Positions 36,788 to 51,523 of a stretch of DNA of 64,000 bases are shown piece after piece (the stretch's first letter is position 1; the number at the start of each line of letters is the position of its first letter). Origin of the DNA: Candidatus Aminicenantales bacterium (GTDB lineage Bacteria; Acidobacteriota; Aminicenantia; Aminicenantales; Saccharicenantaceae); the NCBI GenBank assembly GCA_049513915.1, contig JBEKVN010000001.1, positions 158,283-222,282 on the forward strand, written 5' to 3'. The notes below the pieces were generated by a model, which saw only the letters and a list, made by a program, of their open reading frames with translations, ran no database searches and had not been told where the DNA came from. The position numbers and the translations under genes were made by a program.

Positions 36788-38023
36788 TCAACTCACCAAG
36801 TTCAGTCTAAAAACAGCGTACTTCATCAAGGACTTGATATCACCGCCCCACTGCGTTTCCGCGCGGATGACCCAGTTTTTATCCGCTTGAAATGAATGTG
36901 TCGAAAAGTCGAACGACTTGATCTCGACATACTTCTCATCGATACAATACCCCCCCGTGCGGGCGCATTGATCCAGGGATTGGCGAGTCGGCGATTTCGG
37001 GGCCTCCGAATCATGAACGGAAACGTGCGAGTTCGGATAGAGCACGTACCTGGCCATGTGGAAATCGAGGGCGACGGGATCCGTGGATGCGGCGATGGCC
37101 TTGGTATGGGCGACCGGCAAATTGGTCCTATCGATAAGACCACAAAACTCCGCTGTGGTGATATTGAGGTAAGGCCTTCGGACAGTTTTTAGGAAATATC
37201 CAACCTCGGCGCCGAGCATCCCCGGAACAGGCCCTTTCTTCGACCAATTGAACGCGAACGAATGGAAATTGTGATAATGATCGACCAATTTGCCGCCGCC
37301 GATGGGACTTGATCCCCCGCTCAGATCACTGACTCCAAGGTAATTCTTGACGGAGCTGGTCATGCCGCAAAACTGGCTGTGATGGTTGAGCGCCGCGCAG
37401 TTGATGAATTTAACCGGCTGAGGAGTATATGAGTCCTTCTCCCAAGCGCCCCACCGATAATCGATGATTGTCCCCTTGTCCGTTCGGATGATGGGATAAC
37501 TCATGATGACTTCACGCTTGTTTAGCCCAGGCAGGCCGTTGTCCATGGCCAGAAGCGGGATACCGCCCGATCCGTCGCATAGCACATACCCCGGCCCGTC
37601 AGGGGGGGAGTAGACCCTTTTCCCGCCGCTCCCGACGTCGATAAGGTGACACACGGAAAACCGGTCTCCAAAGGCTTTCTTGAGGCGGTCGGCCAGGCCG
37701 TTGTAGCTCTTAATGCCGGGCAGATCCGAATTTCGATCGAAATCGGTGTGCCAGCCACCCGTTTCCCAAGGCCTGGAGCCCCTATGGACATTCTCCGCGA
37801 TTACGACTTCGCCCTTGAATCCGCCCCTCTTCTCCATGATCAGAGTGATCAGCGCTTCGACGGCGGCGATGTTGGGCGCGCCCTGGTTGAACCACTGAAG
37901 ATTCGGCTTGATGATGACGATGTCGTCATCGCCGAAGAGCCTTTCCGCGCCGCCCATCATCGCCAGGACTTTCTCCATGTTCTCGGAGGGGGATCCATTG
38001 ACGGCACGAAAGACCTTAGCCAT
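36788..38023 (-). CDS. DUF362-domain protein
   Basis: DDIVIIKPNL near the N-terminus and overall length match the DUF362 family. Function unknown. Confidence 0.5.
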   Translation of the reverse strand: MAKVFRAVNGSPSENMEKVLAMMGGAERLFGDDDIVIIKPNLQWFNQGAPNIAAVEALITLIMEKRGGFKGEVVIAENVHRGSRPWETGGWHTDFDRNSDLPGIKSYNGLADRLKKAFGDRFSVCHLIDVGSGGKRVYSPPDGPGYVLCDGSGGIPLLAMDNGLPGLNKREVIMSYPIIRTDKGTIIDYRWGAWEKDSYTPQPVKFINCAALNHHSQFCGMTSSVKNYLGVSDLSGGSSPIGGGKLVDHYHNFHSFAFNWSKKGPVPGMLGAEVGYFLKTVRRPYLNITTAEFCGLIDRTNLPVAHTKAIAASTDPVALDFHMARYVLYPNSHVSVHDSEAPKSPTRQSLDQCARTGGYCIDEKYVEIKSFDFSTHSFQADKNWVIRAETQWGGDIKSLMKYAVFRLNLVS

Positions 38024-38103
38024 GATATCCTTCTATTTCTTTAACGGGGGTTTCCTGGATTCCTTGGCGGACCAGCAAGTATCTCTGGCTTCATCCGACC
38101 TGA

Positions 38104-39099
38104 TCAGGTTACGATCTCCGGCACCGCGCCAGCCAAAATCGGAGGCAAGTGAAGGTACAACGTCGTGGAGCGCTTCCTTTCGATGTCCCGGTAGATGCTG
38201 CGAACTTGTTGCGGCGAAAGGCCGGTGTGTCCGCTGACCGTTTCGGCGTCGATGCCGTGGTTTTTTCCATAGAGGCAGAGGTCCATGATCTCGTAAGGAA
38301 CGGTGAAGTAGAATTCGTCCTGCCCCTGAGGCAGGGAATAGGTGTCCGTCGTCGGCGGTCGGCGGAGGACGGCCTCCGGCAAGCCCAAATGGCGCGCCAG
38401 CTGGTAGACCTGTGTCTTGTACAGGTGGGCGATGGGCTTGATGTCCGCGGCGCCGTCGCCGAGCTTGACGAAGAATCCCTGGTCGTATTCCAGCCGGTTA
38501 GGGGTGCCCGCGACGGCATAGTTGTGCTTATCGGCGTGGTAGTATTCCAGCATCTTCCTGATTCTTTGCTTGAAATTGGTGGCGGCCACGATGGCTAGAT
38601 AGGAATTCAAATCAAGCCGCTTTTTTATCTCCCTTCCATCCGGCGAAACGGCGACTATCGAGAACAGCGTGTAGGGCTTGTCCTCTCCGATGCCCGGCAA
38701 GACGAGCTTCGACTTCCATCCGGCGCCATATTTGGGAATGACCGACCGGACAGCTTCGTCATACTTGGTATAGAAGCCGGCGGCATCGAGGAGTGAGGAG
38801 ATGTCCCAGTGGACCTTTCGTATTCCTAGATGATCTGCAACCACCGAGCTCAGCGCCATTGTCTCGTCTGCAGAATGGCGTTCGGGCATCTGGAGGCCGA
38901 TGACCTTGTCTTTCCCGATGGCGCGAGCACACAAGGCCGCCGTGACACTGCTGTCGATCCCCCCGGAAATGCCGAGGATCAGGCCCCTCCGGCGGAGCCT
39001 CTTGGCCAAGGCCTCTCTTATCGAGAGAGCGATCCTCGCCACTTCGCGATCGCCATCGATCGTGAGAACCTCCCGGGAAAAATGAACGCCTGCCATCAT
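38104..39099 (-). CDS. NAD+ synthetase-like PP-loop ATP pyrophosphatase (NadE family, paralog 1)
   Basis: GLILGISGGIDSSVTAALCARAIG is the PP-loop SGGxDS motif. Size and C-terminal region are typical of NH3-dependent NadE. Confidence 0.7.
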   Translation of the reverse strand: MMAGVHFSREVLTIDGDREVARIALSIREALAKRLRRRGLILGISGGIDSSVTAALCARAIGKDKVIGLQMPERHSADETMALSSVVADHLGIRKVHWDISSLLDAAGFYTKYDEAVRSVIPKYGAGWKSKLVLPGIGEDKPYTLFSIVAVSPDGREIKKRLDLNSYLAIVAATNFKQRIRKMLEYYHADKHNYAVAGTPNRLEYDQGFFVKLGDGAADIKPIAHLYKTQVYQLARHLGLPEAVLRRPPTTDTYSLPQGQDEFYFTVPYEIMDLCLYGKNHGIDAETVSGHTGLSPQQVRSIYRDIERKRSTTLYLHLPPILAGAVPEIVT

Positions 39100-39173
39100 G
39101 TTAGCCTCGGGGCGCCTAGAGATCTTCTTCTGTCCTCAGTGTCAAAGAGCCAGTCCGTAAGGCGCATATCCTG

Positions 39174-50686: not shown

Positions 50687-50967
50687 CACGACCAACCGTG
50701 TCTGAAGTTCGAAGCTTCCTCCTGGAGCACTTCTCTTTCACGATCGCCGCGAACGGGCTGAATCCTACGGAGATCGGCGATGATTTTGATCTATTGGAAG
50801 CCGGGGTCATAGATTCTCTCGGTGTTCTCGAGATGATCTCGGCGGTTGAACAGCGCTTCAAGATCACCGTCGATTTCGAGCCGATGGACCCGGCCGAGCT
50901 TACTCTGCTGGATAAGTTCAGCTCCTTCGTGGCCGAGAATGCCGTCGCGAGAGGGGATGTGTCGTGA
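50683..50967 (+). CDS. Acyl carrier protein (ACP 3)
   Basis: 94 aa. AGVIDSLGVLEM phosphopantetheine site. ATGA-type overlap with the ligase stop. Confidence 0.8.
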   Translation: MTRPTVSEVRSFLLEHFSFTIAANGLNPTEIGDDFDLLEAGVIDSLGVLEMISAVEQRFKITVDFEPMDPAELTLLDKFSSFVAENAVARGDVS

Positions 50968-51043
50968 CTCGGGAGGCCGCTATTCTCGAATCTTCCGATC
51001 GCCTTCGTAAGGTGGCCGTCGTCTTCTAATGATGAGGTGAACC

Positions 51044-51523
51044 ATGGAAAACAAAGAGAACCAAGTCATCGGCCTATACATCCGCATGCTACAATTCCTG
51101 GCTCGCTTCAGCCCAGGCGCTAGGACCCTTCGCGTCTGGCTGCATCGCTTGCGCGGCGTCAAGATCGGAAAGCGCGTCTGGATCGGCTACGATGCCGTTA
51201 TCGAGACGTCCTGCCCTTATTTGGTCGAGATACACGACGACGCCGTCGTGGGCATCCGGGCTACGATCATCGCCCATTTTCGTGAATACGAAGGGGTGGT
51301 CCTCGGGGAGGGTGCGGTCCTCGGGCCGGGGGCGATGGTTTTGCCCAACGTGAAGATCGGGAAGGGCGCCGTGGTTACGGCGGGGAGCGTCGTCACTCGC
51401 TCCGTACCGCCTATGACCCTCGTTCAGGGAAACCCGGCCCAGCCTGTCGCTAAGGTGGGAGTCATGTTGGGTATGGACACTCCGATGCAAGAGTTCTCCA
51501 CGCACCTAAAACCCCTCCGCTGA
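51044..51523 (+). CDS. Hexapeptide-repeat acyltransferase (left-handed beta-helix)
   Basis: Hexad repeats IGKRVWIGYDAVIETS...VVGIRATIIAHF...LGEGAVLGPGAMVLPNVKIGKGAVVTAGSVV. Confidence 0.65.
   Translation: MENKENQVIGLYIRMLQFLARFSPGARTLRVWLHRLRGVKIGKRVWIGYDAVIETSCPYLVEIHDDAVVGIRATIIAHFREYEGVVLGEGAVLGPGAMVLPNVKIGKGAVVTAGSVVTRSVPPMTLVQGNPAQPVAKVGVMLGMDTPMQEFSTHLKPLR

Follow-up and report, generated by a model that had tools for sequence, protein, structure and literature searches.

Enzymes of the FkbH family convert 1,3-bisphosphoglycerate to a glyceryl unit carried by an acyl carrier protein (ACP) (PMC7489565), and FkbH loading domains in nonribosomal peptide synthetases (NRPSs) give N-glyceroyl peptides in which the glyceryl unit is N-linked to an amino acid (PMC13122637). 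N-glyceroyl sugars exist as well, e.g., Pse5Am7Gra of Tannerella forsythia, and their genetic basis has been called 'elusive' and 'a major challenge' (PMC6120980, PMC5378307). In Campylobacter jejuni, the flagellin glycosylation locus carries an FkbH-domain gene, cj1302 (PMC7099621), and the modification of Pse with dimethylglyceric acid depends on Cj1295 (PMC3068675). AlmEFG adds glycine to the lipid A of Vibrio cholerae (PMC4278540). In the work of Veith et al. (2020), WbpA/B/E/D(/S) together with VimE, a CE4 enzyme, and VimA, a member of the FemAB family, make a 2-N-seryl or glycyl-3-N-acetyl-uronic acid, the amine of this sugar is amide-bonded to T9SS (type IX secretion system) cargo, and VimA relatives in exosortase loci were speculated to act likewise (PMC7468200). 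The attachment target of exosortase-processed PEP-CTERM proteins has been an open question since 2006. The present analysis concerns a 64,000-nucleotide stretch (the window) from a Candidatus Aminicenantales metagenome-assembled genome (MAG), in which an exopolysaccharide (EPS) island contains, at positions 36788-51523, an FkbH-like protein, three ACPs, two adenylating enzymes and two NadE-like enzymes arranged in two gene cassettes.

The two cassettes, each conserved independently of the other, probably feed glyceroyl, small aminoacyl and amidated acyl groups to amino sugars of exosortase-linked EPS through cytoplasmic, carrier-protein-dependent N-acylation, a reading to which a probability of roughly 55% was given. 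By profile and homologue searches, the system is not unique to the window; it combines known themes yet fails the curated cutoffs of the XrtA-specific and Dlt families. Gene calls came from the open reading frame (ORF) listing and from profile searches of the window proteins. The region consisted of two divergent operons with a 295-bp intergenic region (45719-46013) between them, and contained the following genes (lengths in amino acids, aa):

Cassette A, 36788-45718, (-), transcribed from 45718 to 36788; core of NadE-like enzyme, ACP and ligase, mostly with AsnB
A1, 36788..38023, (-), DUF362 protein, 411 aa, accessory member of cassette A; PF04015 32 bits (cutoff 24)
A2, 38104..39099, (-), NadE-like PP-loop ATP pyrophosphatase 1, 331 aa; NF002048 488 bits (cutoff 313), SGGIDS
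A3 (ACP1), 39174..39419, (-), acyl carrier protein, 81 aa; PP-binding E 1.6e-7, Ser in 'IIDSMG' (IDSM)
A4, 39491..39949, (-), VOC/glyoxalase-fold protein, methylmalonyl-CoA-epimerase-like, 152 aa; Glyoxalase_4 76 bits
A5, 39946..40839, (-), LbH acyltransferase, 297 aa; Hexapep E 2.9e-9, C-terminal extension of about 100 aa
A6, 40842..42425, (-), acyl-CoA/ACP-ligase-type adenylating enzyme, 527 aa; AMP-binding E 4.7e-79
A7, 42443..43477, (-), FemAB/VimA-family acyl- or aminoacyl-transferase, 344 aa; PF13480 60 bits, PF02388 47 bits
A8, 43563..44525, (-), NadE-like PP-loop enzyme 2, 320 aa; NF002048 390 bits (cutoff 313), SGGVDS
A9, 44669..45718, (-), GT2 glycosyltransferase, first gene of the minus-strand operon; Glycos_transf_2 E 3.6e-10
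Cassette B, 46014-51523, (+), in the order tandem-GNAT, FkbH, ACP, NRPS-type adenylation enzyme, ACP, LbH
B1, 46014..46973, (+), tandem-GNAT N-acyltransferase with N-myristoyltransferase-like fold, 319 aa
B2, 46996..48744, (+), predicted FkbH-like glyceryl-loading enzyme, 582 aa; TIGR01686 211 bits, SGNH-like, HAD-IIIC and GNAT-like domains
B3 (ACP2), 48722..48970, (+), FkbH partner, 82 aa; PP-binding E 2.8e-7, WDSL motif
B4, 49004..50686, (+), stand-alone NRPS-type adenylation enzyme, 560 aa, true start perhaps later; TIGR01733 310.7 bits, slightly under the cutoff of 317.4
B5 (ACP3), 50683..50967, (+), A-domain partner, 94 aa; PP-binding E 3.5e-6, IDSL motif
B6, 51044..51523, (+), LbH acyltransferase, 159 aa; Hexapep E 7.8e-13

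All of the genes named for this range in the initial annotation were present, with significant family matches, and the phosphopantetheine Ser was retained in three of three carrier proteins. ACP1 and ACP3 shared 32% identity, similarity between ACP2 and ACP3 was not detectable, and this divergence among the three is consistent with dedicated pairing of loaders and carriers. Two loader-carrier pairs were translationally coupled: the ATG of ACP2 overlapped the 3' end of the FkbH gene by 23 nt, and an ATGA start/stop overlap joined B4 and ACP3. A transmembrane (TM) segment was predicted in none of the module proteins, which points to acylation on nucleotide- or lipid-linked precursors, before export. 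Promoter-like divergent sites were located at 45850-45993; these scored only weakly above shuffles and were given little weight.

The FkbH-like protein B2 matched TIGR01686 at 211.2 bits against a cutoff of 146.65, with positions 3-315 of the 323 in the model covered. Its best start was the GTG at 46996, giving a protein of 582 aa, the same length as more than 100 close homologues. An AF2 model (pLDDT 80) together with Foldseek revealed three domains: an N-terminal domain (residues 1-220, 46996-47650) resembling SGNH/GDSL esterases, with matches to the structural-genomics entry 3slr (Bacteroides fragilis BF1531) and to the esterases 8ik1 and 5mal; a middle HAD domain, MDP-1-like; and a GNAT-like C-terminal domain. 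The HAD motifs D231-L-D233-D-T235, S281, K314 and D336-D337 were invariant across 35 homologues, so the DxDxT catalytic residues are present and the FkbH identity first assigned to this protein stands. Also invariant in the 35 homologues was C502 ('WVMSCRAFSR', in the GNAT-like domain), the candidate glyceryl-carrying Cys, whose equivalence to the OzmB Cys is presumed. In the N-terminal domain A-C27-G-F-T took the place of the SGNH 'GDS', and C27, H33 and H207 were invariant in the same set. An N-terminal SGNH-like domain is not known from canonical FkbH proteins associated with polyketide synthases (PKSs). From what is known of the family, B2 is predicted to use 1,3-bisphosphoglycerate to give glyceryl-S-ACP2, and it is family membership, motifs and translational coupling that point to this step.

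Compared with FkbH/OzmB-type systems (methoxymalonyl-ACP and tetronate pathways; NRPS loading as in suomilide BslA), B2 was alike in passing the TIGR01686 cutoff, in its HAD motifs and in its coupled, dedicated ACP. It differed in the extra N-terminal SGNH-like domain, in lacking a PKS or NRPS and FkbG/I/K or FabH-like partners, and in its partners within glycan loci: an LbH protein, a tandem GNAT and, in relatives, a CE4-like protein. With C. jejuni and T. forsythia the likeness lies in N-acylation of an amino sugar with a group derived from glycerate, which is predicted for the window, and, for C. jejuni, in an FkbH-domain gene within a glycan locus; there the sugar is a nonulosonic acid on flagellin or S-layer, and the systems were likened by their published descriptions. 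The C. jejuni flagellin locus also holds extra ACPs and an amino-acid-activating enzyme.

For the second loader of cassette B, the closest stand-alone PDB relatives of B4 included AlmE (4oxi) and DltA, and its second-best NCBIfam match was DltA, below the curated cutoff. The specificity code of B4 was DLASLCLVAK, while 7 of 11 orthologues had DLFSLCLIAK. Both codes come from a MAFFT alignment in which a fragment of GrsA served as the anchor; this fragment yielded the published DAWTIAAICK. Asp235 was retained in B4, indicating an alpha-amino acid as substrate. The pattern xxxxLxLIxK is similar to codes for Gly, Ser and Cys, and a small amino acid on ACP3 is suggested by the Gly/Ser/Cys/Ala-like character of the B4 code. 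The two putative transferases of the cassette were of different kinds. B1 had the fold of a fatty-acyl N-transferase (N-myristoyltransferase-like), and B6 matched, among other families, the terminal LbH domain of Pls/PosA NRPSs (TIGR02353, E 3.8e-16), a domain that uses aminoacyl donors tethered to a carrier. In AlmEFG and DltABCD, as proposed for B4 and ACP3, a stand-alone NRPS-type A domain and a small carrier supply a glycoconjugate with an amino acid. A tandem GNAT and an LbH protein stand here in place of an AlmG-type lipid A acyltransferase or a DltB/DltD pair, and no AlmG-like protein was seen. As judged from sequence, the resemblance of B4 to DltABCD/AlmEFG is one of architecture only.

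Cassette B was widely represented in other genomes. FkbH-like homologues numbered more than 5,000 proteins at E ≤ 1e-10, and an FkbH-like relative was encoded in 573 of 599 pattern-matching stretches (one genome per species). In total, 83 FkbH loci were compared, from Acidobacteriota, Planctomycetota, Gemmatimonadota, Actinomycetota and Proteobacteria MAGs. Window homologues were mapped on these loci through ORF calling, blastp and clustering. An ACP2-type carrier adjoined FkbH in 76 of the 83 loci, and FkbH, ACP2 and a B6-type LbH protein occurred together in 17. Nine loci had the A domain, ACP3 and the 319-aa GNAT (B1), never one without the others and never without the LbH protein, which makes up the full six-gene set. 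In 13 loci, a cytoplasmic protein some 600 aa long, with a weak match to CE4 (NodB), was present, always with LbH and FkbH-ACP, and VOC homologues accompanied FkbH-ACP in 17. Coding regions for the CE4-like protein lay, for instance, at 12573-14372 in locus L001 and 12526-14313 in L003, with 11 further loci. The closest relatives of the window FkbH were in L164 (83% identity) and L165 (70%), both with the same gene order in cassette B. In L164, cassette B was followed directly by LbH-ACP-ligase-NadE; in L165, the ligase, LbH and NadE genes followed in a less compact arrangement in which the ACP was not called. A polytopic membrane protein of 533 aa without a family match (35186-36787, (+), at least nine hydrophobic segments) was conserved in L164 and L165, where it is likewise placed between WecB and the GT2/B1 genes.

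The neighbors of cassette B belonged to glycan pathways. Across the 83 loci, FkbH-ACP relatives neighbored glycosyltransferases, AsnB, UDP-sugar dehydrogenases, WecB, CE4 deacetylases, FemAB-like proteins and flippases, with no ketosynthase or condensation domain in their company. For the more distant loci, the genes on either side of FkbH-ACP, 126 in all, were sorted by Pfam family into 14 MaoC-dehydratase/SDR fusions, eight CE4 deacetylases, seven TylF or Methyltransf_24 O-methyltransferases, six Hexapep proteins, five Glyoxalase_4 proteins, four GT1 glycosyltransferases and four aminoglycoside-type N-acetyltransferases (Antibiotic_NAT), with polysaccharide flippases also among these genes. 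No ketosynthase (KS), acyltransferase (AT), condensation (C), thioesterase (TE), FabH-like or acyl-lipid genes were found in the window or among the 126 neighbors. A polyketide or tetronate origin was ruled out by the lack of KS, AT and FabH-like genes in both sets, and the case of a separate lipid or polyketide pathway, raised in the initial annotation, was likewise set aside given the glycan neighbors and the lack of ketosynthase and condensation domains. The fusions of MaoC dehydratase and SDR, about 400 aa long, followed FkbH-ACP in L016 (3456-4667), L028 (11948-13144) and about 13 other loci (Planctomycetota, Bryobacteraceae and others). Their presence suggests a sister variant in which glyceryl-ACP would be turned into a lactyl- or pyruvoyl-type unit.

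The FkbH-ACP, LbH and CE4-like triad seen in relatives may follow the logic of LpxC/LpxD, in which an acetyl group is first removed and an LbH enzyme then N-acylates the amine from an acyl-ACP. The proteins are not orthologous to LpxC/LpxD, the proposed group is glyceryl and not hydroxymyristoyl, and the CE4-like partner is missing from the window.

Cassette A had its own pattern of conservation. Its two NadE-like proteins were 41% identical, both retained the SGGxDS PP-loop, and both exceeded the TIGR00552 cutoff (162 and 171 bits against 63.65) while falling below the equivalog model NF010587 (173 and 198 bits against 255). An insert of about 57 aa set them apart from solved NadE structures (canonical 2e18). 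The family held more than 8,000 members at E ≤ 1e-30, which public databases name NAD(+) synthase. Homologues of NadE-like 1 at 57-78% identity were collected from 80 metagenome loci, and the 23 with enough flanking sequence were counted for partners within 5 kb of NadE. An A6-type ligase was present in 19 of the 23, an ACP1-type carrier in 18, an AsnB-type amidotransferase in 17, a FemAB-like protein in six and an exosortase in four; DUF362, VOC, LbH and CE4 proteins were occasional. Locus L084 was near-syntenic with the window (FemAB-ligase-ACP-NadE-DUF362 at 57-78% identity). DUF362 adjoined NadE1 there (66% identity) and was present too in L106, L138 and L148; a sequence search of the PDB found no solved relative of this protein, for which a role as LarA-like alpha-hydroxyacid racemase is conceivable. 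The position of the family beside ACP, ligase and AsnB in EPS/exosortase loci, together with the insert, suggests that the NAD(+) synthase label is a functional mis-annotation.

A4 reached 67.7 bits on TIGR03081, under the cutoff. A5 gave weak WcaF-like matches, and a shorter LbH protein adjoined ACP-ligase-NadE in L164. The nearest stand-alone PDB relatives of A6 were fatty-acyl, feruloyl, oxalyl, o-succinylbenzoyl and malonyl-CoA synthetases, the FDxS motif was not present in A6, and there is a weak hint that its substrate may be a short or dicarboxylic acid. The XrtA/PEP-CTERM set (TIGR03098, TIGR03019, TIGR03108) shared its protein families and exosortase context with the window, and the ligase beside NadE in L164 scored 435 bits on TIGR03098. 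A6 scored 338 bits on this model against a cutoff of 592 (B4, 186 bits), and A7 scored 110 bits on TIGR03019 against 260, with matches to FemX structures at E 1e-9. Three window proteins and the exosortase thus fell below the cutoffs of the set, and the NadE-like partner lies outside it as named. The ligase and FemAB proteins are accordingly related to the XrtA-specific families without belonging to them, and the block does not amount to the known trio with additions. The main text of Haft 2006 did not mention the ligase, ACP or FemAB.

The combined evidence can be arranged as a pathway. In cassette B, the HAD domain of FkbH would dephosphorylate 1,3-bisphosphoglycerate, and the D-glyceryl group would pass via the invariant Cys of the GNAT-like domain to ACP2. 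B4 would adenylate a small alpha-amino acid and load it on ACP3. B1 and B6 would then transfer the ACP-borne groups to sugar amines in the cytoplasm, and which of them takes which step is guesswork. In the favored order, B1 places the aminoacyl group on the sugar amine and B6 might add glyceroyl from ACP2 to any free primary amine; this could be a sugar amine, freed by a deacetylase or made by the aminotransferase, or the alpha-amine of the aminoacyl group placed by B1. The products would be N-glyceroyl or N-(glyceroyl-aminoacyl) sugars. Alternatively, B1 could make N-glyceroyl-aminoacyl-S-ACP3 and B6 then move the whole unit, an order that is also guessed. In cassette A, A6 would charge ACP1 with a carboxylic acid, which may be a short dicarboxylate; the NadE-like PP-loop enzymes would carry out an ATP-dependent amidation, with AsnB acting in parallel; A4, the VOC protein, may epimerize the alpha-carbon (C2) of a thioester; and A5 and/or A7 would transfer the product.

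Several points weigh against this N-acylation pathway. The CE4-like partner of about 600 aa was not found in the window by tblastn or phmmer; its slot held an unrelated 858-aa, periplasmic lipoprotein (51707-54283) with a GH38-like N-terminus (NDDHTDYIW). An exosortase lay within 10 kb of FkbH in only one of the 83 loci, which indicates that cassette B is not exosortase-specific. The substrate predicted for B4 depends on likeness to Stachelhaus codes, and sequence does not tell the roles of B1 and B6 apart. Finally, the NadE-like proteins score above the cutoffs of curated models for NAD synthase and may have a plain NAD synthetase function.

Outside the two cassettes, the window contained further genes that bear on the acceptor:

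29328-30392, CE4 deacetylase, upstream of the cassettes
31972..33873, (-), AsnB-like amidotransferase (WbpS/eps_aminotran_1-like); TIGR01536 521 bits, TIGR03108 481 bits (cutoff 817)
54499..57188, (+), WbpE-like aminotransferase, WbpB and WbpD/WlbB; DegT family, PDB matches
58400..59277, (+), exosortase; TIGR02602 128 bits (cutoff 105.55), listed ORF starting at 57871 with the domain from about residue 180
59391..59648, (+), PEP-CTERM mini-protein, 85 aa; TIGR02595 24.6 bits (cutoff 16)

The DegT aminotransferase occupied 54499-55647, WbpB matched structure 3oa2 (E 1.6e-113), and WbpD/WlbB matched 3mqg (E 1.3e-65). Upstream lay an NDP-/UDP-sugar dehydrogenase (272 bits on TIGR03026, cutoff 190) and a WecB 2-epimerase (323 bits), and downstream of cassette B a NagX-like membrane acetyltransferase. 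A Wbp-type set (WbpA-, WbpB-, WbpE- and WbpD-type enzymes with AsnB) was therefore complete in the window, its substrates being predicted, and the product, a 3-amino or 3-acetamido uronic acid sugar, is likely the acceptor. The exosortase context supposed at the outset proved real, and the exosortase was not XrtA by cutoff (141 bits on the XrtA model against 208). In the mini-protein directly after it, a signal peptide preceded a mature stretch (about 31 aa) with many Gly, Thr and Ser residues, and VPEP, a TM helix and KRKRGKKQ came next. From the Wbp genes, the exosortase and the PEP-CTERM protein taken together, the island would make a 2,3-diamino-2,3-dideoxy-uronic acid sugar and belong to the exosortase system. 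FemAB/VimA-like proteins in the window numbered three: A7, 5719-6822 and 13962-14954 (the last with 38 bits on TIGR03019). Of the Wbp/Vim system of Porphyromonas gingivalis and T. forsythia, WbpB, WbpD, DegT, UDP-sugar dehydrogenase, WecB, AsnB, CE4 and FemAB/VimA-family proteins were all in the window; to these the window adds an A domain with its carrier, the FkbH/ACP pair and the NadE/ACP/ligase set, and it has an exosortase, not PorU.

Set against these results, the initial annotation fared unevenly. A non-carbohydrate acyl, glyceryl or aminoacyl decoration within the EPS island was borne out by the gene identities and by glycan synteny, while its framing as a single block and as an extension of the exosortase trio was not. 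One single module was ruled out, since synteny showed at least two independently conserved cassettes, and in it NadE-ACP-ligase was regularly accompanied by AsnB. The flagged range likewise gave no functional boundary: the linked AsnB, CE4, WbpE/B/D, exosortase and PEP-CTERM genes (the last two at about 58.4-59.65 kb) lie outside it. A route peculiar to the window does not agree with the >5,000 FkbH-like homologues, 573 stretches and >8,000 NadE-like members, nor is the route of a wholly undescribed kind, given the precedents in the C. jejuni locus (PMC7099621), NRPS FkbH domains (PMC13122637), Wbp/Vim (PMC7468200) and AlmEFG (PMC4278540). Transfer onto the PEP-CTERM peptide, also proposed, found no supporting evidence in the analysis.

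A different role for the island would be to build the exosortase linking sugar itself. The ACP3 system, with B1 or a FemAB/VimA-like protein, would make an N-aminoacyl-2,3-diamino-uronic acid whose free alpha-amine serves as the nucleophile for PEP-CTERM transfer, as with the T9SS sortase PorU. The parts for this are in the window: the Wbp pathway, the CE4 deacetylase, the three FemAB/VimA-family proteins, the AsnB/WbpS-like enzyme, the exosortase and the adjacent 85-aa PEP-CTERM peptide. The B4 code is akin to Gly/Ser-type codes. Veith et al. demonstrated linking sugars that bear 2-N-seryl or glycyl groups and raised, as speculation, a like role where exosortases are encoded (PMC7468200), and NadE-ACP-ligase sets lay near exosortases in L109, L118, L127, L138 and L161. 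However, the FkbH/A-domain cassette was near an exosortase in one of 83 loci, a glyceroyl cap added by B6 would remove the nucleophile, VimA in Bacteroidota needs no dedicated A domain or ACP, and no exosortase product is known to have been characterized. On balance the linking-sugar role was considered unlikely.

A broader proposal unites this role with glyceroylation. The A domain and ACP3, with the N-myristoyltransferase-fold GNAT or a FemAB/VimA-like protein and with NadE-ACP-ligase-AsnB, would build an amino-acid-bearing 2,3-diamino-uronic acid that is the exosortase acceptor for PEP-CTERM proteins (here the 85-aa peptide), and in parallel FkbH-ACP-LbH(-CE4) would be a general installer of N-glyceroyl groups on bacterial amino sugars. 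This is a doubtful proposal. Should the main N-acylation reading be right, the FkbH-ACP-LbH cassette, found in hundreds of genomes of several phyla, would be a concrete candidate for the genes of N-glyceroyl sugars; the NadE-like linkage would point to a large mis-annotation and to a carrier-protein-linked amidation step; and the window, with a Wbp/Vim-like pathway, aminoacyl loading, an exosortase and a minimal PEP-CTERM peptide in about 30 kb, would offer a compact system for testing the acceptor.

Extracytoplasmic aminoacylation of the Dlt kind was held to be improbable. Here B4 and ACP3 would act as DltA and DltC, and an MBOAT (10375-11820) and its partner (11827-12789) would esterify the exported polysaccharide. 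B4 matched DltA at 225 bits, ACP3 gave weak DltC-like matches, and the MBOAT matched both DltB (TIGR04091, 192 bits) and PF03062. Moreover, an MBOAT adjoined ACP and ligase in L148 and lay near NadE-ACP-ligase in L143. Every Dlt match was nevertheless under its curated cutoff (DltA 225 against 476 and 213 against 560; DltC 26.7 against 68; DltB 192 against 375 bits). The MBOAT lies 37 kb from B4/B5 in a differently composed part of the island, and in nine of nine loci the A domain and ACP3 were accompanied by the cytoplasmic B1 and LbH proteins, not by an MBOAT. O-acetylation of the AlgI/AlgJ type just as typically pairs an MBOAT with a DUF1574-like protein.

Similarly low odds were given to a free small molecule or lipid (an N-acyl amino acid, aminolipid or glycerate metabolite) whose genes are merely co-located with those for EPS. 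N-acyl amino acid synthases have been tied to PEP-CTERM/exosortase loci (Craig et al., 2011, cited in PMC11631085), the fold of B1 is that of a fatty-acyl N-transferase, and the best, though weak, matches of ACP1 and ACP3 were to the ornithine-lipid ACP family. Against this stand the lack of KS, C, TE and acyl-lipid genes in the window and its 126 counted neighbors; the conserved partners, which were CE4 proteins, glycosyltransferases, aminoglycoside-type N-acetyltransferases and flippases; and the interleaving of the cassettes with GT2 genes in several loci.

That the NadE-like genes are ordinary housekeeping NAD+ synthetases placed in the island by chance is very improbable: both pass NF002048 and TIGR00552 and bear the NAD(+) synthase name in databases, but they are two diverged paralogues within one EPS operon, their orthologues (59-78% identity) adjoin ACP, ligase and AsnB in most loci, and the insert of about 57 aa separates them from solved NadE structures.

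Additional genes were observed toward the start of the window. A TupA-like ATP-grasp protein (3824-4738, (+), PF14305 153 bits) was a candidate for forming an amide link between an amino acid and a uronic acid, and hence for a further route of non-carbohydrate decoration within the island. The MBOAT was followed by a membrane-anchored DUF1574-like protein, encoded on the (+) strand, and the pair may be AlgI/AlgJ-like or DltB/DltD-like. Further on lay a 695-aa protein with a DUF354 domain (19201-21288, (-)), a B12-binding radical SAM enzyme resembling HpnJ/BchE (21436-22935, (+)) and a fusion of Acyl_transf_3 and SGNH domains, an OafA-like O-acetyltransferase (23020-25302, (+)). The GC content was 0.44-0.49 over window positions 4000-12000 and 0.53-0.62 elsewhere, and this low-GC part may have a different origin.

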